From: an uncultured Thermoplasmata archaeon
GTDB taxonomy: Archaea > Thermoplasmatota > Thermoplasmata > Lutacidiplasmatales > UBA184
Length of the DNA stretch: 64,000 nucleotides
NCBI GenBank assembly: GCA_963696985.1
Contig: CAVOMG010000003.1
Location: 257,747-321,746 of the forward strand
Direction: 5' to 3'
Shown here: piece by piece, positions 37,202 through 64,000 of the stretch
Position numbering within the stretch: the first letter of the stretch is position 1
Layout: every line of letters starts with the position of its first letter
Notes under the pieces: model-generated
Database searches by the model: none
What the model was told of the DNA's origin: nothing
What the model saw: only the letters and a program-made list of their open reading frames with translations
Program-made: the position numbers and the translations under genes

Positions 37202-38671
37202 GTGATCGGCGTCCTCTCCCTCATGCTCGCGACGCTGCTCGTCAGCATGGTCCTCACCTTCCTGTCGGGACGGCGGGCGCGCTACGTCGCTCTCGCCGGA
37301 TCGGTCGCCTTCCTCGCGGAGGTCCTCTACCTACTGTCGAGCTTCACCCAGTGGGCCGGCTTCGGGGCCGGCGGGGTCCCCCAGGTACAACGACGCCGAG
37401 ACGTACTCCTGGATCTCGATCTCCTGGCTCCACGTGAACTACGCCGTGGGGATCGATGGGATCTCCCTCGTCCTCGTCCTCCTTACCGCCTTCCTCCAGA
37501 TCGCGACGGTCATCTACTCCTGGCGGGAGTCGAAGGAGCCGTCGGCCTGGTTCGGCCTCGTCCTCCTGACCTGCCTCGGCTGCTTTGGGGTCTTCATCTC
37601 GCTCGACATCCTGTTGTTCTTCCTGTTCTGGGAAGCCGTCCTGATCCCGATGTTCTTCATGATCGGGTACTGGGGCGGCCCGCGCCGCCGCTACGCCGCG
37701 CTGAAGTTCTTCGTCTACACCCACGTCGCCTCGATCGCGATGCTGGTCTCGCTCCTCGCCCTCGCGTTCTACTCGGGGGCGCCGTCGTTCGACTTCACGA
37801 GCCTCTATGGACCCGCCCGGACCCTCTCGGCGACGACGCAGGTCTTCCTCTTCCTCGGGATGTTCTTCGGCTTCGGGGTCAAGTTCCCGATCGTCCCGTT
37901 CCACACTTGGCTCCCGGACGCCCACGTCGAGGCGCCGACCGGCGGATCGGTCCTGCTCGCCGGCCTCTTGCTCAAGCTCGGCGGATACGGACTGATCCGG
38001 TGGGCGGTGGAGCTCCTCCCGGTCGGGGAGAGCCACCTCGCGCCGCTCCTCTACGCCGTGGCGTTCGCCTCGATCATCTGGGGGTCGGTGGTCGCGCTCG
38101 CCCAACGGGACCTGAAGCGGCTCGTGGCGTACTCCTCGATCAACCACATGGGGATCGTCCTCCTCGCGATCGCCGTCGGTTCGTCGCTCGGGATCACGGC
38201 CGCGGTCCTGCTGATGTTCGCCCACGGGATCGTGAGCGGCCTCTTGTTCATGGTCTCGGGATCGGTCCACCACACGTTCGGCACCCGGGACGTGAACGCC
38301 GTCGGGGGGATCACCCCCGGACGCCGGCGCTCTCCACGATGGTGATGGTGGGCTCGCTCGCCTCGCTCGGGCTCCCGGCCCTGATCAGCTTCCCGGCGGA
38401 GTTCGGCGCCCTCCTCGCGGCCTGGGACCGCATCGGCGCCTGGGTCCTGATTCCCCTCCTCGTGCTCGTCGTAACCGCCGCGTTCTACCTGTGGATGATG
38501 CAACGGATGCTGTTCGGACCCCCGAAGGGGATCCCCGAAACGGCCCACGACCTACCGAGCTTCGAGCTCGTGGCGATGGTGATCCTCGCGGCCTTGATCG
38601 TCCTCTACGGCGTCCTCCCGAGCCTCCTCGTCCAGGTGATCGTGAACTCGCCGATCCAAGGGTGGCCGTAG
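37202..38671 (+). CDS. nuoM: NADH-quinone oxidoreductase subunit M; frame broken twice
   Basis: N- and C-termini lie in ORF 37202..38671. The core is in ORF 37434..38345: 'VGIDGISLVLVLLT', 'FFLFWEAVLIPMFFMIGYWGG', 'FGVKFPIVPFHTWLPDAHVEAPTGGSVLLAGLLLKLGGYG', 'LVAYSSINHMG'. Junctions at the C5 run 37378-37382 and the G6/C5 runs 38304-38318. Confidence 0.9.
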   Translation: MIGVLSLMLATLLVSMVLTFLSGRRARYVALAGSVAFLAEVLYLLSSFTQWAGFGAGGVPQVQRRRDVLLDLDLLAPRELRRGDRWDLPRPRPPYRLPPDRDGHLLLAGVEGAVGLVRPRPPDLPRLLWGLHLARHPVVLPVLGSRPDPDVLHDRVLGRPAPPLRRAEVLRLHPRRLDRDAGLAPRPRVLLGGAVVRLHEPLWTRPDPLGDDAGLPLPRDVLRLRGQVPDRPVPHLAPGRPRRGADRRIGPARRPLAQARRIRTDPVGGGAPPGRGEPPRAAPLRRGVRLDHLGVGGRARPTGPEAARGVLLDQPHGDRPPRDRRRFVARDHGRGPADVRPRDRERPLVHGLGIGPPHVRHPGRERRRGDHPRTPALSTMVMVGSLASLGLPALISFPAEFGALLAAWDRIGAWVLIPLLVLVVTAAFYLWMMQRMLFGPPKGIPETAHDLPSFELVAMVILAALIVLYGVLPSLLVQVIVNSPIQGWP

Positions 38672-52191: not shown

Positions 52192-52298
52192 GGCCGGGAC
52201 CGAGAGTCTCGGGCGCCGGGGGTGGGCCCCGTCGCCTTTTGAACCCGGGTCGAGGGATCCACAGTCCCCCAGGATAGGCCAAACTACCCCATCCCGGC
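52192..52298 (-). tRNA. tRNA-His (GUG) with a 32-nt intron in the T-loop (between positions 59 and 60)
   Basis: Minus-strand parse: GCCGGGA | U8 G9 | GGGU | A14..G18G19..A21 | UCCU | G | GGGGA-CU[GUG]GA-UCCCU | CGAC | CCGGG-UUCAAA^(AGGCGACGGGGCCCACCCCCGGCGCCCGAGAC)^U-CUCGG | UCCCGGC | C73.
- Acceptor stem: 7/7 Watson-Crick pairs.
- A genome-encoded G-1 lies opposite C73, the tRNA-His hallmark.
- G53-C61 is present, and the spliced T-loop is UUCAAAU.
- The intron forms a GGCG(A)CGGGG/CCCCGGCGCC hairpin.
- An A/T-rich 'AAAAACCTTTTCA' lies about 35-45 nt upstream. Confidence 0.8.
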
Positions 52299-52395
52299 CG
52301 CAAGGGAAGGACGGGGGTCGGCCATGAAAAGGTTTTTGGCTGCGCACCCGACCGGGCTCCGCTTGGGCCGGGTGCGATCTGGCCCGGGGCTCGAG

Positions 52396-54857: not shown

Positions 54858-55675
54858 TCACTTCTTGGCGCGTCCGCGCCGGCGCGCGGCCACCCGGGTC
54901 GACCATATAAAGAGCGCCCCCACGAACGCCACGGAACCCGCGGCGTACCAGATGGTGTAGTCCGGCGGCGGTCCGTTCACGTAGAACGTCTCGCTGTACT
55001 GCTGCGCCCCGCCCGGGAACGTCACGAGGCCGTGCTCGGTGGCGAGCGTGATCGCGAAGGTGTGGTACCCGGCGAGAGGCCGAGGTCGACGTAGGCGAAA
55101 TTGATCGGGTACGTCGAGCCCGCGGTCATCACCGGGACGGAGATCGACCCGACCGGCGTGCCGTCGAGGGTGACCGTGAGCTTGAGCGGCCCGACGGTGA
55201 CCCCGCTCGCCGCGACGAGCGTGGCGTTGAGCCGGTACGGCTCGACGATCTGGACGGCGTAGCTCAGGTTGTTCGACTGGTTGTTCTTCTGGTAGCTCGA
55301 GGTGATGAGGACGGTGATCGTCAGCGTCTCGGCGGCCGCCGGGGCAATCAGGTCGAGCACGACCGACCCGTTCAAGAGCACCCCGGTCGACGGGTTGATC
55401 GAGGCGCCCGTGGCGTTGATGCCTGTGACCGAGGCGTTGTAGGCGTACGTCCCGATCGTCGTCCCGTTCGACGCTTCGGCCGGGCCCCCGGTCGCGGTAA
55501 CGGTGTAGTTCGCATGGAGGGACTCTCCGACGTCGGCGGGGCCGTTGATGGCCCCGGTGACCGCCGGGGCGGCCCCCTGCGCCAACGGGGCGAACCCCGC
55601 GAGGAGCGTCCCGGACAGGCCCGAGGCGAGGAGAAGGACGATGGCGATCGCGGTCGGGAGGGAGGTTCGCGCCAT
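54858..55675 (-). CDS. secreted, C-terminally anchored glycoprotein candidate; frame broken once
   Basis: Signal 'MARTSLPTAIAIVLLLASGLSGTLLAGFAPLAQG'. Sequons 'NYTV','NGTT','NASV','NATG','NGSV','NQSN','NLSY','NATL'. After about 55077 another frame reads 'LAGYHTFAITLATEHGLVTFPGGAQQYSETFYVNGPPPDYTIWYAAGSVAFVGALFIWSTRVAARRRGRAKK*' (TM plus basic tail), with stop at 54858-54860. Confidence 0.7.
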
Positions 55676-55679
55676 CGGA

Positions 55680-58600
55680 TCAGCGCACCCATCGCCGGGT
55701 CGAGTACCATCGGTAGACCACGAGAGCGACCACGAAGGCGATCGCGGGGACGAAGGCGAGCAGGGGGATGAGCCAGTCGGGCGTCGAGGGCGGCGTGCCG
55801 ACGTTCGGGCCGATGACGGTGATCGCGGAGCCGTTCACGGAGATCGGCACCACCGGGATCGACACGGTCACCTCGGAGGTGGCGACCCCGCCCGTGGTGT
55901 TGAGCACTTCCGCGCTCACCGTGAGCGAGCCCGGCGGCGGAGCGGCCCCGAGGGTCGCGTTGAGGACGACCGTCACGGAGGTGTTCCCGGCGGGCGCGAT
56001 CGTGAGGGGGCCGTAGACCGTCGAGCCGGAGGACTCGATCTGGTTGGTCCAGCCGAGCTGGGCGAGGGTCGCGCCGTTCGAGACCGAGATCGCGACGGCC
56101 TCCGGGAAATTCCCGGTGTTCGTCGCGTAGAGGGGGACCGTGACCCGGCTCGGCGTCACGGAGAGGTCGACGCTCGCCGAGCGCCCTACGATGACGCCCC
56201 CCTTCGGGTGGATCGACACGGGCGCGGGGAGCGCCGACTGTCCGACCTGTTGGGTCGTTCCGGCGAGATCCGCGACGAGGAGGATCGGCGGGTGGTTGAC
56301 CGGCGTGCCGGCCGGGACCTTGACCGTGAACGATCCGCTCGAGCTCAGGTTGTTCGACCCGGTCCCGAGGGTGAAGTTCGAGGGCGATATCGTGAAGTTC
56401 CAGGTCGAGGGGTTGCCGAGGACCGTCACGTTCACCGGGGCGTTCCCGGTGTTGCGGATCGTGAACCCGAGGGCGACCGTGCCGCCCGACGGCGGCAGGT
56501 TCACCGACTGGGTCAGGTTGGTGGGCGAGGAGACCGAGATCTGGACCGCCCGGATGTACCGCTCGGTCATCGGGAGCGTCAGCCCCACGTTGCCTGTCAA
56601 CAGGTTGAACGTGACGCTCGCCGAGGCGACCGTCGGGACCCCGAAGGGGCGGGAGGGGGCCGTCGCGCTCGCGAGGTACGTGCCTGCCGGTAGGGGGATC
56701 GACAGCGCCGCGCTCGGGACGACGTCGGTGAGCGAGAAGGAGAGCCCGAGCGGGGAGCTGAGCGTGAGGTTGATCGCGCCGATCGCCTCCCCGGGGGGCG
56801 GCAGCGCCGTGAGGGCGACGCTCCACGCGGGAAGGAGCGTGAGCGTGACCGGGCCCGTGCTCCCGAGGAGGACGGCGACCGTCGTCAGGAGGGCGTACGT
56901 GCCGCTCGAGGAGTTCGCATAGACGGTGTACGTCCCCGGCGAGAGCGCGACCGAGAACGTCCCGTCGGAGGCGGTCTGGACCCGGGTCGAGGCGACCGAG
57001 GGCGACGGGCCCTCGAAGAGGAGGGCGCCCGGGACTAGCGCCGGCGAGTTCCCGACGGCGAGCCGTCCGGTGAGCGTCAGGTCGATCTCCCTCCCGACGA
57101 GGTTCACGTTGCAGATCGTCCCGACCGGGCGGACCTGGCAGCTCTCGCCGATCGGCACGCTGAGCGCCTCCACGACAGTGACGTTGTCCTGGGGGAAGGC
57201 CGCCGTGACGTTGAGGAACGGCGTGTAGGTCACGTTCACCGGCAGCGTCACGTTGTAGGTTCCGCTGACGACCGGAGCCGGGAAAGCGAACCCTCCGGGG
57301 TTCACGAAGCTCGCCACCGCGGGTACGGGGAGGGGGAGGAGGCTCGGAAGGTCGACGGAGCCTTCGAACGAGACCGAAGGTGTGGTGAGCGCGAAGGAGC
57401 GCGAGAAGGCGCCCGTGCTGCTGACCGATACGGAACCGAACGACATCCATCCCTGGCTCGTCTGGGGGCCCCCGACCGTCGCGATGTAGTCGTAGGACCC
57501 GGGGGCGAGGTAGAAGCCGTTCGTGAGCCCGCGGCCCGAGACCGTGGCATTCATCCGGTCGGAGAGGAACTCGATCTGCTCGGTCGAGGCCACGGCCTTC
57601 GCCGGGACGCTGATCGTTCCCCGCGCGACGATCTGATCGGCGAGGCGGACGGTGAGCTGGGGAGCCACGGCGCCCGGGGCGATCGTCCAGCTCGAAGAGT
57701 TCACCGGGTAATAGAAGCCGTTCGGCGAGCCGGGCGCCCAGGCGCTGATCGAGTAGGACCCCGGGGCGACCGAGACGGCGATGGGCGAGCTGCCGTTCGC
57801 CTGAATGCTACGCGCTCCCGCCGAGGTCGCCGTGAGGTTCACGTGCACCGACGTCCCGGTCGGAACGCCCGTGAGGACGATCGTTCCCGCGACCGGCGCT
57901 CCGACCAATCGGACCACGGTCCCGGCCGGCAGGGAAGCCCCCGAAACGTGGCACCGGTCGCTCGGCACGTACCCCGGGGCCGTCACGTTCACGCAGAACG
58001 TCGGGATGGCCCCCCCGAAGGATGCGGTCGGCGTGGTCGGCAGGATGGCGGACGCGTTGCCGTGGGCGTTCGATACGGCGGTCACGGTCGAGCCCTGGCT
58101 CGTGAGGGTGAAGTTCACCGTCGCGCCCTTCAACGGCTGGCCGGTGGCGTTGTTGAGCACGACCACCGTCGAGAGCGCGGTCGGTGAGGTGGCGAGGTCG
58201 ACCCGGGTCGGTCCGAAGACCGCGGCCTTCGCGAGGGCGGACTGGTCGGGGCTCGGGCTCGACGCGAGCACGGAGTACATCCCATCGGGAAGCCAGAGGG
58301 AGGTACTGGCGCGTGGAGTTCGAGAACGCCCAGACGACGTGTCCGGAAGCATCGTAGGCAGAGACCTCGATCGGGAGGCTGATCGACGCGTTGGCGGTCC
58401 CGTTCGCATAACCGTAGAGCCTCGAGGCGGACGATAGCGCGAGCGCGGGCACGGTGGTCGACCCGGGGCCGACGGGCCCCGACCAGAACCCCGCGCGGTA
58501 GGAGGAGCCATTGTAACCGAGCGCGTAGACGGAGTAGTTCCCCTCGGGCAGGACCAGGCTCGCGACCCCGTCGACGTTCGTCATGGCGACCGAGGTGTTC

Positions 58601-61600
58601 GCTTGCTGCTGGGTGAGATGGGCCGACGTGGTGTTGTTCGTCGGTCCGATCGAGATCACGGGGGGCAGGATCTGGGTGAACCGGACCGGGATCCCGGAGA
58701 CGGGGGTGCCGCCGGCGAGGACCTCGACCGAGACCGGGGCGACCGGGACGATGGTGAAATTGAGGGTGGTGTTGGCACCTGGGGTGGCGAGTCGAGCGGA
58801 TTGGGGGTTCGACGACTGCCTCGGCGAGGTCGTGGCCGCATGGACCGTGTAGTTGCCGGGCCCGAGGTCGTCGATATGGTAGCGGCCCGTCGCGTTCGTG
58901 GTGGCGGTCGCGGCGAGACCCGAGTTCCCCGCGACGGAGACCGTCACCCCCGGCGCCGCGGCGCCGTCGCCGAGCCTCACGGTCCCGAAGATCTCCCCGG
59001 AAGAGAGGCTCTCGGTCTCGTTGACGGTCTTCCCGGGAAGAGCCGAAGCGGTCGACTCGGTGTAGTTGGAACCTCGGTAGACGATCGAGACGTTGTAGAC
59101 GCCGGGCGGAACGTTCGAGATCCCGAAGGTGCCGCTCGCGTCGGTCGTCGCGGTGAGCTTCGAGAGGTTATGGCCCCAGAAGACGACCGTCGCTCCGACC
59201 ACCGGGTTCGTCGACCCCGAGTTGCCCGAGGTGCTCCAGGTCAGGAATCCCTGCACGGTCGCCGGCTTCACCACGAGGGGGAGGAGCATCGTCGGGCTGT
59301 TCAGGGAGAGTCCGTAGGCCGCGGGAACGGTCACGTTGAACGTGGTGAGGTGGGTCGCGCCGGCCTGGGTGAGGAGGTTGACCGAGCCCGTCGAGACGTT
59401 GACCGTATCCTCGCCGGGCGGAAGGATCAGGGAATAGGAGCCGTCCGAGCCGGTGAGGGTCGTCATGTGGGGGATCCCCCACGAATCGTAGACCGTCACC
59501 CGGGCGTCCGAGACCGGCCGGCCATTCGGCAGCTCGACGGTCCCGACCGCGGTGACCCCCGGATAGTATTGGAGGATCGCCTCGCCGCCCCCGAAGTAGG
59601 AGTTGAGGCTCAGGTCCGCCGTACCGTTGAGCTTCGACTGGACCTTCTCGGCCGTCGGGACGTTCGTGGCCATGAAGCACGGGGAGCCCGCGGTGGCGTT
59701 CGGGGTCGGGCAGGAGTACGCCGTCCGGTAGACGACCTGGAAGTGCTCGAGCATCCAACCCGGCTCGATCGGATCGCTCGCCCCCTGGCTGTTCGTCGAC
59801 GAGAGCCAGGGGATCCCGGCGACCTGGCCGACCTCTTGGCCGTCGTAGCCGAAGTAGGTATGGTAGATCATCGTGTTGTAGAACGCGTCGGTGTAGTTGA
59901 TGTTGTAGTTGACCGCGGTCACGCCGGCGGGGAGCTGGCCCGCCGCGTAGGTGTTCCCGTCGGAGCCGACGACGCTGACCGTGAAGTAGGACGTCGGTTC
60001 GCCACCCGCACCGATCACGCGGCCGGTGAGGTCCGCCGGGGCGTAGAAGATCCCGGTGTTCTGGCCCGAGAAGGGGATCAGGCGCGAGTCGACCATCGGG
60101 TAGCGGATCGACCAGCCCGTGTACGCCTGGATGTCATCGTAGACCCGGGCGACGCCGGAGAGCGGGAGGGTGGAGGCGAGGTAGTAGCTCACAGCGTCAT
60201 ACATCGCATTGTCCGCGGTGACCGTCGAGGGGTTGACCGCCACGTAGCGCTCGGGGTGGGCTTCGACGAGCGGCAGGTCCGCGGACGGGTGGGCGAGGAG
60301 GGCATCGAGTTGGCCCGTGTTGACACCGTCGTTGGCGAGGACCTGGTTGAGGCCCGCGGGCAGGCTGGGCTTGCCGGTCGCCTGGGCCTCGGCGCTGAGG
60401 AGGGTGGTGGACAGGACCCCGATGGCGAGCGATTCGTTCTGGGAGAGCAGGAAGTTCCCCGAGGGGTCGATGCCGTTCTGGAAGTTGTCGGCGACCGAGG
60501 GGTGGTCCCCTTCGGCGATGGTCTGGAACCCGTAATCCCACCAGCTCACGAGCGCCGGACGTTGGGGTTCGGGCAGGTTGGTGTCTTGGGTCGCTAACCA
60601 ATTGTACCCGGCCTCGTCGGTACTGGCTCGGAGTGTCGAGGTCGCTCCCGGCGGCCCCGAAGTAGTAGCTCGACGCGTTCGTGGGCGCGACCCGCAGGGG
60701 GGGCGGGAGGGCGTTGTAGACCTGGGTATCAAAACCGGATTTCGAGTTGTAGGGGATGCCGGCGTCGATCGCGTACCAGACGTTCGGGACGACGATGACG
60801 AGGACGAGCGCGAAGACGAGGATGTGGCGGGCCTTGAACGAGCGCCGGAACGCGGAGAGCTGGCTCCGCCGGTCCGAGAGGGAGACGACGTTCCGGCGGA
60901 GGGTCGGGTAGCCGCCGATGTCGAGGATGCGCGTGAACGCCTCCGCCGGGAGCAGGCAGAACGCCGCGGAGCCGATGTAGAAGAACTTCGCCGCCGAGAT
61001 CGGGAGGTAGATCGAGATCACCCCGAACATCAAGAAGAGCAGGTGGCGCCGCTCGAAGCGGCCCCGGACCATCTGGTAGACGACGAAACCGAGCCCGGCG
61101 AACGCGAGGAAGAACGTCACGACGCCGTAGCCGATCAGGAGCGAGTCGATCGAGGGCGCCTGCGCTTCGGCGACGGTCGAGTAGATCAGGGTCTTGACGA
61201 AGTACCCTTGCCCCGAGACGATGTCCGAAAACTGGGCGGGCGCGGAGATCGCGAGGGCGCCGACGGCGCCCGCCGCCGTCAGGACGAGGACGGGGAGGCT
61301 GATGACCCACGGCGAGTCCCGGAGGATGAGGAACGGGACCAAGACGAGCAAGGCCCCGAAGTAGATCAGGACCGGCTCGAGGAACCAGATGTGGTAGTCG
61401 CCCTGGACGAAGTAGTAGGGGAAGGCGAGGGGGAAGCCCACGACCCCGATGATGGCGGTGGTCAGGAACAGCCCGAACGAATCGATCCGCCGGATCCGCT
61501 CGACGATCATCTGGACGACGAGGAAGGCGATGACGAGCGCGACGAGGAACGTGTACCCCTGCCAGGTCAGGATGACGACCGCGAAGGAGACGCCGGTGAA

Positions 61601-62275
61601 GACGGCCCACTTCACCGCCGTGGGCTCGTAGTGGAAGTACTCCCGAACCCCGCGCACGATCTCTCTCGGCTTGCGGTAGCTGGTGACCCATCTTCGGGTC
61701 CCGGCGGCTCGGATCGTCCTCAGGTAGCCATAGACCATGACGAGAATGAAGAACGTGTAGAACGAGAGGTAGTTCGAGTAGCCGAACGTCGACGAGTCGA
61801 TGTTCGCCACGAGGAAGGGCCAGATCAGCGCCGCGACCAGGCCCATGCGGCGCGAGCTGACCTCCTTCCCGACGAAGTAGAGCGGGAAAACGCTGAAGGC
61901 CGCCCAGAGCGGGGCCGCGAGCTCGAGGGAGAACATCCCCGCCGACGCGGCGCTCCCGCCGAAGAGCGGCGCGAAGATGATCCCGAAGACCGCGTTCATC
62001 CAGTCGAACAGCGGTTCGCGGGGGTTGATCGCCCCGACCGGGTACCGGAGGAGCGAGTCGTTGATCAGGTTCCGGTGGTTCAGGATGATGTAGTCGCTGA
62101 CCCGCCAGTGGTAGAAGGAGTCCGAGCCGCCCGCGAAGAAGTAGGAGGTCCCGTACTGCTCGAAGAGCGGGAGGTTCCAGAGCGTCCGGATGAGGAACGT
62201 GATCGAGAAGGCGGCCAGCAGGACGAGGACCGTCCACCCGTGGCGGGCCCACCACCCCTCGCTTTTCGAATCCAT
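55680..62275 (-). CDS. aglB: archaeal oligosaccharyltransferase AglB (STT3) apparently fused to a long sequon-rich beta-sandwich repeat region with a C-terminal TM anchor; frame broken twice
   Basis: Multi-TM N-terminal region with 'GGSDSFYHWR' (ORF 60197..62275). 'WWDYGFQ' at 60523-60543 (the WWDYG core is 60529-60543) and the catalytic globular domain lie in ORF 57808..60732. Then repeats such as 'GTVELPNGRPVSDARVTVYDSWG...GSDGSYSLILPPGEDTVNV' (carboxypeptidase-regulatory-like). The sequence continues without a signal peptide or stop into ORF 55680..58511, which ends 'DWLIPLLAFVPAIAFVVALVVYRWYSTRRWVR*'. Junctions at about 60620-60650 and about 58295-58320. Confidence 0.75.
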
Positions 62276-62477: not shown

Positions 62478-63026
62478 TCAGGATTCGGAATCGCTCGCCG
62501 CCCGGAAACGGTAGAACACTCGCCCGTCCGGTAGATCGTACGGCTCCACCGAGACCGGTAGACCGATCCGGCACCGCTCCCACGTCGTGCCGGCGATCCG
62601 ACCGAACAGTCGCAGGGGCACCCCATCGAGGTCGACCAGGCCGACCACGAACGGGACCTCCGCCTCCATCCCGAGCGGCGCGCCGGCCAGCACCGCGCTG
62701 AAGGCGTAGATCCGGCCGGCCATCGGAAGATCGGCCCACTCGAGCTCGTTCGAGTGGCAGTGGGGGCAGACCACGCGGGGCGGCCAGAGCCATCGATCCT
62801 CCCGGGCACACCGGGTGGTCGAAAGCCGGCCCTCCCGAAGGCGGTCGAAGAACTTCGAGAGCCGGGTGTGCGCTTCGTCCTCGAGGGGGTAGAAGTCGAG
62901 GAGGAACGGGACGCCCGCAGCAATGGGGGCCGGGGTCGCCGGCGACCGAGCGGGGGCGACCGCCTCCGGCGCGGCCGATCCCGGGGACGCGCCCCGGACG
63001 GTCGGGTGAGGACGGGAGTCGCTCAT
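62478..63026 (-). CDS. DUF35-type OB-fold/zinc-ribbon protein (thiolase/HMG-CoA synthase scaffold)
   Basis: 'RLSTTRCAREDRWLWPPRVVCPHCHSNELEWADLPMAGRIYAFSAV...VPFVVGLVDLDGVPLRLFGRI'. ATG 63026 overlaps the thiolase stop (ATGA). Confidence 0.82.
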   Translation of the reverse strand: MSDSRPHPTVRGASPGSAAPEAVAPARSPATPAPIAAGVPFLLDFYPLEDEAHTRLSKFFDRLREGRLSTTRCAREDRWLWPPRVVCPHCHSNELEWADLPMAGRIYAFSAVLAGAPLGMEAEVPFVVGLVDLDGVPLRLFGRIAGTTWERCRIGLPVSVEPYDLPDGRVFYRFRAASDSES

Positions 63027-64000
63027 GACGCGCTCCGGCCGTAGATCATGACCGAATGCACGTTCGCGCTCCCGCTCAAGTTGTGGACGAGCGCCCACTC
63101 CGGATCCGCGACCCGTCGCTGGGGCGGACTTCGGCCGGAGAACTGCTCGTAGACCTCCACCGCCTGCCCGATCCCGGTCGCGCCCAGCGGGTGCCCGCAC
63201 CCGAGCAGTCCGCCGCGCGGGTTGACGACGACGTCGCCGTCGAGGCCCGAGCGGCGATCGAGCACGAACCGACCCCCTTGGCCGCGCGGGCAGAAACCGA
63301 GCGCTTCGTACTCGATGATCTCCGAGATCGTGAAGCAGTCGTGGACCTCGGCGAAGTCGATCTCTTTCGGGCCGATGCCGGCCATCGAGTACGCCTCCCG
63401 GGCGGCGGACGTGAGGCCGGCCCATTCGGAGAGGGAACCCGCGTTCGCGAGGTTGTGGAAGTCCGAGTACCTGGCCGCTCCCCCGGACCCAGACGGGGGT
63501 GTCGGTGTACTGGCGGGCCAGCGGCTCCGCCACCAACACGACCGCGGCGGCCCCGTCGGTCATGGAGGAACAATCGCCGAGCCGCAGCGGCGGCGCGACG
63601 ATCGGGAGTCGGCCGAGCTTCGCCCGGTCGAACGTTTTCGAATGGAACTGGGCGTTCGGGTTCGAGTTCGCGAACCGGTGGTTCTTCTCCGAAACCGCGG
63701 CGAGCGCCTCCTCCGAAGTACCGAACTCGAGCATGTGCCGCTGGGCGACCATGGCGAAGAACGGCGGGGCCGTCGCCCCGTGGGCGCCGTCCCAGGCCCG
63801 GTCCATGACGCAGGCCATCGCCGTGTTCGCCTCGGCCATCGACGGGAGGTTCATCTTCTCCACGCCGACCGCGACCGCCACGTCCGATAGGCCCGAGGCG
63901 ATCGCCGCGTAGGCGCTGCGGATCGCCGACTGGCCGGAGGCGCACGCGAGCTCGGTCCGCTGGAGGATGCGTCGCGGGGTGAGCCCCATCTGCTCCGCGC
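63023..64000 (-). CDS. archaeal-type acetyl-CoA acetyltransferase (thiolase), 5' end outside window; frame broken once
   Basis: 'ELACASGQSAIRSAYAAIASG..DVAVAVGVEKM' (active-site Cys). '...TPVWVRG' joins at the C5 run 63480-63484 to 'AARYSDFHNLANAGSLSEWAGLTSAAREAYSMAGIGPKEIDFAEVHDCFTISEIIEYEALGF...NPRGGLLGCGHPLGATG' (ORF 63023..63385). Confidence 0.88.

Follow-up and report, generated by a model that had tools for sequence, protein, structure and literature searches.

AglB, the oligosaccharyltransferase, stands alone among the enzymes of archaeal N-glycosylation in being nearly universal, and characterised AglBs are ~590 to 1,050 amino acids (aa) long. The minus strand of a 64,000-nucleotide stretch of contig CAVOMG010000003.1 from an uncultured Thermoplasmata archaeon, hereafter the window, raises the question of whether this enzyme can also be made as a single polypeptide of ~2,200 aa, in which the catalytic core continues into a ~1,300-aa stalk dense in N-x-S/T sequons and ends in a membrane anchor of its own. 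Such a fusion had been proposed from the DNA alone (the sequence-only reading), across two breaks in the reading frame. We conclude that positions 55680 to 62275 carry one intact giant aglB gene and that both frame breaks come from one-base errors in the assembly consensus, a reading to which we assign a probability of about 0.85. The fusion of AglB and stalk is real: hundreds of intact, full-length homologues encode the AglB core, the sequon-rich stalk, and the C-terminal anchor as one polypeptide, just as had been proposed.

The GC content of the window is ~70%, and spurious open reading frames (ORFs) therefore occur everywhere in it. The ORF listing divides the region among three minus-strand ORFs in three different frames (60197 to 62275, 57808 to 60732, and 55680 to 58511). 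In a three-frame translation, the protein-like reading runs in frame A to ...DTPSQY, continues in frame B from DEAGYNWLATQDT... to ...FSNSTRQY, and proceeds in frame C from SLWLPDGMYSV... to the stop codon, with the switches falling in the ORF overlaps (...FGAAGSDLDTPSQY to DEAGYNWLATQDTNLPEPQRPALVSWWDYG..., and later ...VVWAFSNSTRQY to SLWLPDGMYSVLAS...). Deleting a single C at each of positions 60619 and 58302 gave a stop-free product of 2,197 aa, so that the continuous coding sequence claimed to run from ATG 62275 to TGA 55680 was indeed obtained once the two breaks were bridged. The catalytic WWDYG motif lies exactly where it had been placed, and the SDSFYH noted earlier was located within a longer GGSDSFYH motif. 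The features of the gene are as follows.

55680-62275, minus strand: whole giant aglB coding sequence, 2,197 aa after the two base removals, with the stop codon at 55680-55682; supported by full-length collinear homologues
60758-62275, minus strand: N-terminal membrane domain (aa 1-506) with ~13 predicted transmembrane (TM) helices, from AlphaFold2 (AF2) helices, Foldseek, TIGR04154, and motifs
62108-62131, minus strand: GGSD52SFYH motif
61790-61804, minus strand: NID160SS motif
61151-61180, minus strand: external loop 5 (EL5)-type motif STVAE370AQAPS
59569-60757, minus strand: predicted extracytoplasmic catalytic globular domain (aa 507-902), from PDB matches 3vu0/3vgp and Pfam AglB_core-like
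60529-60543, minus strand: WWDYG motif (aa 578-582)
60451-60471, minus strand: IDPSGNF at the DK-motif position
55794-59568, minus strand: predicted extracellular stalk (aa 903-2160) of ~13 tandem beta-sandwich domains, from Pfam, a NOMO2 match, AF2, Foldseek, and sequons
55683-55793, minus strand: C-terminal anchor, with a TM helix at aa 2168-2192 (55698-55772) and then a basic tail, ...YRWYSTRRWVR

The homologues carry most of the weight. With the bridged protein as the query, 357 proteins were recovered, and the best 120, all from Thermoplasmata metagenome-assembled genomes (MAGs), were 2,186 to 2,231 aa long and had 99 to 100% query coverage at 45 to 73% identity. Across the two junctions the closest homologues, P0001 and P0002, read TPSQYDEAGYDWLA and GRYALWLPNGEYSV / HRYSLWLPTQRYSV, and the bridged window protein aligned with them across both joins without a gap, residue for residue. 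We also scanned one genome per species (GTDB species representatives) with the giant form as the query, which gave at least 582 matching stretches, and kept 80 loci. All 80 were from Thermoplasmata or Methanobacteriota MAGs, Candidatus Lutacidiplasma silvani among them, and a single uninterrupted ORF of ~2,185 to 2,220 aa was present in every kept locus with a long enough contig. The aglB ORFs of loci L048, L058, and L065 are shortened (2,119, 1,950, and 2,135 aa, respectively), with tblastn matches that reach the end of the protein; these loci are all from the "MFD" long-read MAG series, and their assemblies may be affected by similar insertion or deletion (indel) errors.

The same architecture extends well beyond the close relatives. 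Searches seeded with distant members recovered collinear proteins of ~2,150 to 2,440 aa in low-GC Thermoplasmatota and in many Methanomassiliicoccales, including the cultured methanogen Methanomassiliicoccus luminyensis, whose orthologue (P0409; 2,173 aa) aligns collinearly to P0001 with 27% identity. Layout and length are conserved over the sampled Thermoplasmata and Methanomassiliicoccales. The architecture had been called unusual, which is correct relative to characterised AglBs, but among these sampled lineages it is the layout found. The giant form occurs throughout Methanomassiliicoccales MAGs, with P0270 and P0404 (1.8-Mb contigs) as examples, and members from this order go by several names: "carboxypeptidase regulatory-like," "glycosyltransferase family 39," "STT3 domain-containing," and "AglB." When the last 873 aa were searched with HMMER against 1.84 billion representative proteins, 117 matches were found, each of them a giant protein or a shorter sequence; the cluster of P0171, with a representative of ~1,000 aa, also contains a 2,153-aa member, and the other short matches look like fragments. 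No stand-alone stalk family or different architecture was found among these representatives. The comparison of homologue lengths and domain contents that had been called for was thus made, and the homologues always encode one gene, never two, so that the refuting condition set beforehand, consistently split homologues, fails.

As for the interruptions themselves, comparison of the window by tblastn with L001, a syntenic 26-kb locus, located two more breaks in the same 18 kb, one in a thiolase gene and one in the gene downstream of aglB. The four breaks are as follows.

60619, minus strand: frame break 1 in aglB, an extra C after CAGTAC; window AGCCAGTAC[C]GACGAG, intact relative L001 AGC CAG TAC GAC GAG
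58302, minus strand: frame break 2 in aglB, an extra C after CAGTAC; window CGCCAGTAC[C]TCCCTCTGG, intact L014 CAG CAG TAC TCG CTC TGG
~63475, minus strand: break in the thiolase gene; window GGCCAG[G]TACTCG, L001 GGC CAG TAT TCG
~55068, minus strand: break in the downstream gene, a 1-nucleotide (nt) deletion, CCGGG-TACCAC

All four homology-verified breaks in the interval from 45.7 to 64 kb are at or next to GTAC, of which there are 46 sites in those 18.3 kb. The 8-mer GCCAGTAC is common to three of the four, with a C added after CAGTAC twice and a G added inside the motif, between CAG and TAC, once; the fourth is the loss of a G just before GTAC. Another copy of GCCAGTAC, at 63507, is unaffected. 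A mevalonate-pathway housekeeping thiolase is among the genes broken. The truncated ORF call that corresponds to this region in the database, P0121, is on a contig of 977 kb, a length that implies a long-read MAG. The breaks are almost certainly systematic consensus indels of a long-read MAG, not pseudogenisation or recoding, and it is plausible that such GTAC-linked indels arise at a methylated motif. The two frame breaks reported from the sequence alone therefore do exist, but as single-base insertions specific to this assembly and not as a property of the gene. A window-wide test based on the codon phase of the GC content at third positions (GC3) flagged 10 of 143 GTAC sites, versus a background of 3.8%, and several of the flagged sites are true gene boundaries; this weakly positive result is too weak to stand alone, and for this reason the case for a GTAC link is the one made by the four breaks verified by homology. 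Indels of this kind, tied to GTAC/GCCAGTAC in a long-read MAG, split genes and conceal architectures such as this one.

Three other explanations of the split region have to be weighed against one intact gene. DNA of this GC content does yield long spurious ORFs across the window, and the apparent fusion might then be an artifact of open off-frame ORFs in 70% GC DNA, laid over two or three separate genes for AglB and a secreted or anchored repeat protein. Both junctions, however, lie within conserved segments that are continuous in every intact homologue, uninterrupted single ORFs are present in 80 species representatives, and the second break is inside a beta-sandwich domain, so that a gene boundary is impossible there. 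Since three-frame translation showed neither junction to have a start codon, a signal peptide, or a stop, the earlier remark that a separate secreted gene is hard to fit at 58.3 kb holds for both, and we give separate genes practically no credence. If ribosomes were programmed to shift by +1 at a common CAG-UAC-C signal, this would account for the 9-mer GCCAGTACC that is common to the two aglB breaks and for the same +1 shift needed at each. Relatives nevertheless encode the same residues in frame without the extra base, and neither a slippery sequence nor a rare or stop codon is present at the sites; furthermore, the extra base in the thiolase gene precedes TAC and the break in the downstream gene is a deletion, so that no common recoding geometry exists, and programmed frameshifting is scarcely credible.

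It is also very unlikely that aglB is a genuine pseudogene in this organism, with both +1 insertions as true mutations and no giant AglB produced. The breaks are, to be sure, present in the deposited assembly, and the database holds the truncated ORF call, 722 aa in length and 100% identical to the window. Pseudogenisation is nevertheless at odds with the state of the three aglB segments, in which no stop codons or other signs of decay were found and which retain 60 to 84% identity to P0001. The two further breaks in the thiolase and downstream genes, which with those of aglB make four at GTAC within 18 kb, bear the signature of systematic error, and the GC3-phase scan suggests more breaks in respiratory-complex genes. 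Outside this interval, GC3 phase suggested further uncompensated or paired shifts at ~17200, ~42600, ~44840, and ~300, only some of them near GTAC, and it suggests that in a NuoM-like gene (37202 to 38671, plus strand) the middle part, ~37440 to 38250, codes in another frame than the ends. The motif CCAGTACC was considered as an error or recoding signal and rejected; its four other copies (17067, 37666, 51875, and 52861) are read in frame as ..YW.. in plus-strand genes, which also counts against programmed frameshifting.

With one intact gene as the preferred reading, the next matter is what it encodes. The N-terminal ~900 aa is, judging from profile, motifs, and predicted fold, an AglB/STT3 homologue that retains the core catalytic residues and carries a variant Ser/Thr-pocket motif. 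TIGR04154 (NCBIfam archaeo_STT3) matched aa 17 to 821 (E = 8e-69, 232.9 bits). The enzyme module was modeled with AF2 as aa 1 to 1147 of P0001, and the model has ~13 long helices (helix predicted local distance difference test [pLDDT] scores of 80 to 94); its best PDB matches in Foldseek were Archaeoglobus fulgidus AglB (AfAglB) structures (7e9s, 3wak, 5gmy, and 3waj; E = 1e-14 to 6e-12; TM-score of ~0.5 on the target; matched chains of 793 to 867 residues), followed by human STT3A/B, yeast Stt3, and PglB. Profile and fold thus bear out the 13-TM-type STT3 core and globular catalytic domain that had been recognized by eye. Conservation of motifs, sequons, and Cys residues was scored in 48 homologues. 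In all 48, G49-G50-S51-D52-S53, Y55, and H56 of GGSD52SxYH are invariant, as are T367, A369, and E370 of the EL5 motif S-T367-V-A-E370-A-Q-A-P-S and the whole of W578-W-D-Y-G. By its position, D52 would be equivalent to D47 of AfAglB and D56 of PglB. The region around and after WWDYG aligned to the C-terminal domains of A. fulgidus AglB-S2 (3vu0) and AglB-S1 (3vgp), and a precomputed PF02516 match is present in many homologues.

Several observations weigh against this assignment. The window protein fell short of the Pfam cut-offs for STT3 (PF02516; 21.5 bits versus a gathering cut-off of 24.5) and AglB_core-like (21.8 bits versus 27), and a phmmer search of PDB with the TM domain alone gave no match even at an E value of 10, so that this domain is placed only by profile and fold. 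The AF2 model of the enzyme module is mediocre overall (pLDDT of 67.7) and drops below 50 across aa 527 to 614, WWDYG included. The candidate second acidic motif, N-I-D160-S-S, is atypical, with Asp in 42 of the 48 sequences and Q, E, or N in the others, with Ser instead of D/E/H at the +2 position, and with model scores below 50 at residues 159 to 167. Moreover, the Lys of the DK motif (..DDAAKFF.. in AglB-S1/S2) pairs with N607 of ..IDPSGNF.., in a column that holds N in 30/48, Q in 16/48, and A in 2/48 sequences and that conforms to neither the canonical DK nor the MI motif. The predicted Ser/Thr pocket is a variant pocket, and given the change from Lys to Asn or Gln together with the atypical second acidic motif, activity or specificity could differ from that of the AglBs studied so far. 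The TIGR04154 score, although highly significant, likewise did not reach the curated subfamily cut-off (233 versus 450 bits), which places the window protein as a homologue outside the curated, archaeosortase-A-associated subfamily.

The enzyme module is followed by a long chain of predicted beta-sandwich domains. Pfam CarboxypepD_reg (PF13620) matched with 113.1 bits (cut-off, 32.3) in five stretches within aa ~900 to 1330, and two more stretches in the last 873 aa scored below the cut-off, in keeping with the at least six repeats that had been counted. Weaker Pfam beta-sandwich matches in the stalk were to SdrD_B, SpaA, NOMO, and EMC7, and the last two domains matched the FixG_C, NPCBM_assoc (NEW3), CARDB, HYDIN-like, and DUF7507 immunoglobulin (Ig) models; in distant family members, CarboxypepD_reg/NOMO-type domains were recognized along a far larger part of the stalk. 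Searched against PDB, the family profile gave NOMO2 (9c7v_B; E = 6e-18) as its best sequence match. An AF2 model of the last 873 aa of the window protein (pLDDT of 87.6) is all-beta, with about nine sandwich domains and one helix, as anticipated for a further ~900 aa of beta structure, and the count of ~13 stalk domains is taken over both AF2 models. In Foldseek the stalk model matched generic multi-Ig chains only (HYDIN, alpha-2-macroglobulin, integrins, and pilins), which offered no clue to function.

The composition of the stalk is rich in S, T, V, A, G, and P, and the density of N-x-S/T remarked upon earlier is well above expectation: the stalk of the window protein has 39 sequons versus 14.5 expected from composition, and the mean in the 48 homologues is 36 versus 12.5 expected. 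Over the whole protein, 19 sequon columns are conserved in at least 70% of the sequences, and 13 of these columns belong to the stalk. The stalk may, as the sequence-only reading proposed, be S-layer (surface layer)-like and self-glycosylated. Two Cys pairs, C1427/C1441 (57951 to 57995) and C1712/C1721 (57111 to 57140, both on the minus strand), are invariant in the 48 homologues, which suggests conserved disulfides in an otherwise nearly Cys-free extracellular region. Mean column identity is ~0.5 in the stalk, ~0.75 in the enzyme module, and 0.70 in the anchor and tail.

The predicted C-terminal TM helix at aa 2168 to 2192 has a Kyte-Doolittle value of 2.88, corresponds to the AF2 helix at residues 844 to 868 of the 873-aa piece, and is followed by RWYSTRRWVR, which agrees with the terminal TM helix and basic tail described beforehand. 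In the high-GC clade, helix and tail (55683 to 55772, minus strand) read P..W..L...P.A.A...YRWWRTRRWxRR, with invariant R and W and a Pro in mid-helix; distant orders retain just a generic basic tail. Conservation of this kind may reflect a specific interaction rather than a plain anchor. Three-frame translation gave no internal signal peptide at the start of the stalk, and at the C terminus (...PDWLIPLLAFVPAIAF...) there was no PGF-CTERM-type motif and no match to any NCBIfam archaeosortase-signal family.

The gene directly downstream of aglB may bear on how the giant protein works.

54858-55675 (L001:16591-17418), minus strand: downstream partner gene, ~272-275 aa, with its start within a few bases of the aglB stop codon
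62316-62330, minus strand: AT-rich AATAAATA box, ~45 nt upstream of ATG 62275, within a 200-nt intergenic gap

In the partner protein, a signal peptide precedes a beta region rich in sequons, and a TM helix with a basic tail forms the C-terminal end; the protein matched no Pfam or NCBIfam family, and in the window its gene carries the 1-nt deletion at ~55068. This 275-aa gene directly follows the aglB stop codon in 72 of 82 loci, and the pair is therefore probably an operon, with the 275-aa protein probably an operon partner or accessory subunit. The AATAAATA box is a possible archaeal TATA element for this aglB-partner operon.

Compared with AglB as characterised (CAZy family GT66), notably A. 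fulgidus AglB-L (3WAJ/3WAK/5GMY/7E9S), the giant protein has in common the predicted glycosyltransferase C (GT-C) fold, with ~13 TM helices and an external globular domain, as well as WWDYG, the external loop 1 (EL1) Asp, and the EL5 TxxE Glu. It differs in being 2.1 to 3.7 times longer, in the ~1,300 extracellular residues and second membrane anchor that it adds, in the Asn or Gln that stands in place of the DK-motif Lys, and in scores that remain below the TIGR04154 subfamily cut-off and the Pfam STT3 gathering score. The stalk resembles NOMO, a subunit of the BOS complex (9C7V/9C7U), with which it shares a dozen or so transthyretin/CarboxypepD_reg-like beta-sandwiches on the noncytoplasmic side, one TM helix, and a short cytoplasmic tail; several NOMO-specific Pfam domains also match the stalk below their cut-offs. 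NOMO itself, in contrast, is a separate eukaryotic protein of the endoplasmic reticulum with its own signal peptide; its partners are NCLN and TMEM147, and no enzyme is attached to it, whereas the stalk is fused to AglB and lacks a separate signal peptide. Near the aglB locus there are no genes for homologues of NCLN or TMEM147. The likeness involves a very widespread domain type and thus does not imply common descent of the whole arrangement.

With archaeal S-layer and multi-Ig surface proteins the stalk shares Thr/Ser/Val-rich beta-sandwich repeats, dense conserved sequons, CARDB/NEW3-like terminal domains, and a TM helix plus basic tail at the C terminus, and there was a weak Foldseek match to Sulfolobus SlaB (8qox_B; E = 3e-4). 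The stalk differs from these proteins in that it lacks its own signal peptide and a PGF-CTERM or other archaeosortase signal and in that it is covalently joined to an enzyme. A further parallel may be drawn with the accessory subunits of the eukaryotic oligosaccharyltransferase (OST), such as the ribophorins, through which the catalytic STT3 is joined by lumenal beta-rich domains that have single TM anchors. This likeness is one of analogy, and we speculate that in the archaeal protein such domains are supplied in cis, together with the small co-transcribed partner; in the searches made with the giant AglB, no OST accessory subunit was matched in either sequence or fold.

From established AglB knowledge and homology, the enzyme would reside in the cytoplasmic membrane and transfer a dolichol-phosphate-linked glycan to the Asn of N-x-S/T on the outer face. 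Because the AglB globular domain is external, the whole stalk is expected to be extracellular; the last helix would then bring the chain back to the membrane and leave the Arg-rich tail inside. Such a topology would give a doubly anchored arch with a contour length of up to ~45 to 55 nm, and the sequon statistics suggest that this arch is heavily N-glycosylated, either in cis or by neighboring copies. Total length is held at 2,150 to 2,440 aa down to 27% identity, so that physical length is probably under selection, as would suit a stalk that acts as spacer or scaffold in the cell envelope. We speculate that the stalk serves as a glycosylated spacer or scaffold, either holding the enzyme in a surface coat or contributing to that coat, and that the stalked AglB probably works with the predicted 275-aa single-pass membrane glycoprotein.

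A classical wall is lacking in several Thermoplasmata, and a bolder proposal for such cells makes the giant AglB and its 275-aa partner an envelope-spanning ruler that glycosylates itself. Its ~13-domain arch would set the thickness of the glycoprotein coat or would itself form that coat, and the ruler would be an archaeal in-cis counterpart of the beta-sandwich accessory and spacer proteins, ribophorins and NOMO, around the eukaryotic OST and translocon. We hold this to be rather unlikely; if it were true, the enzyme would be mechanically coupled to the surface layer that it builds. The main alternative is a polyprotein strategy, whereby a precursor is cleaved between catalytic domain and stalk to release a normal-sized AglB and a C-terminally anchored surface glycoprotein. 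This would agree with the lower conservation of the stalk relative to the enzyme, with a composition and sequon density like those of archaeal surface glycoproteins, and with the separate anchor, which would hold the released stalk on the cell. The boundary, on the other hand, offers no conserved linker and no recognizable cleavage or sortase-type motif: the first CarboxypepD_reg domain abuts the catalytic domain, and the boundary residues YYPG..G.V.LP.G are conserved. A 1:1 stoichiometry with an enzyme would also be a poor route to an abundant coat protein, and we consider cleavage quite unlikely.

Whatever the role of the stalk, the extension is unlike that of any characterised AglB member, and the architecture is robust and widespread. 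To our knowledge, structural and biochemical work on AglB has all been done on enzymes of ~600 to 1,050 aa, whereas the enzyme found in the sampled Thermoplasmata and Methanomassiliicoccales, which include lineages abundant in soils and guts, has ~2,200 aa and differs from the AglBs studied in its second anchor, its length-conserved and putatively glycosylated stalk, and its dedicated partner gene. Most members are labeled "carboxypeptidase regulatory-like domain-containing protein" in databases, so that name-based surveys can miss giant AglBs. No description of a giant or stalked AglB was found in a full-text literature search, the coverage of which did not extend to a 2020 AglB phylogeny paper. 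Likewise, the Lutacidiplasmatales genome paper (PMC9287336), PMC5898192, PMC9723798, and a 2024 review (PMC11407970), searched by term, did not mention one. As the cultured M. luminyensis has an orthologue, it can be tested directly whether the stalk is a spacer, a part of the coat, a handler of substrates, or a product of cleavage.

The surroundings of the gene are shared with relatives, in which the order is thiolase, DUF35, giant aglB, the 275-aa gene, an aS21-like zinc ribbon, and EF-1beta; the aglB locus is not a glycosylation island. The remaining features in and near this neighborhood are as follows.

62800-63998, minus strand: archaeal thiolase gene, split by the +1 at ~63475 between the frames of ORFs 62478-63989 and 63023-63385
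62478-62951, minus strand: DUF35/ChsH2-like (zf-ChsH2/OB) gene
52224-52299, minus strand: tRNA-His (GTG)

The DUF35 gene happens to be in the frame of the N-terminal part of the thiolase, which gives rise to a misleading 503-aa ORF. The tRNA-His gene lies between a HAD-hydrolase-like gene and a small gene of 81 aa.

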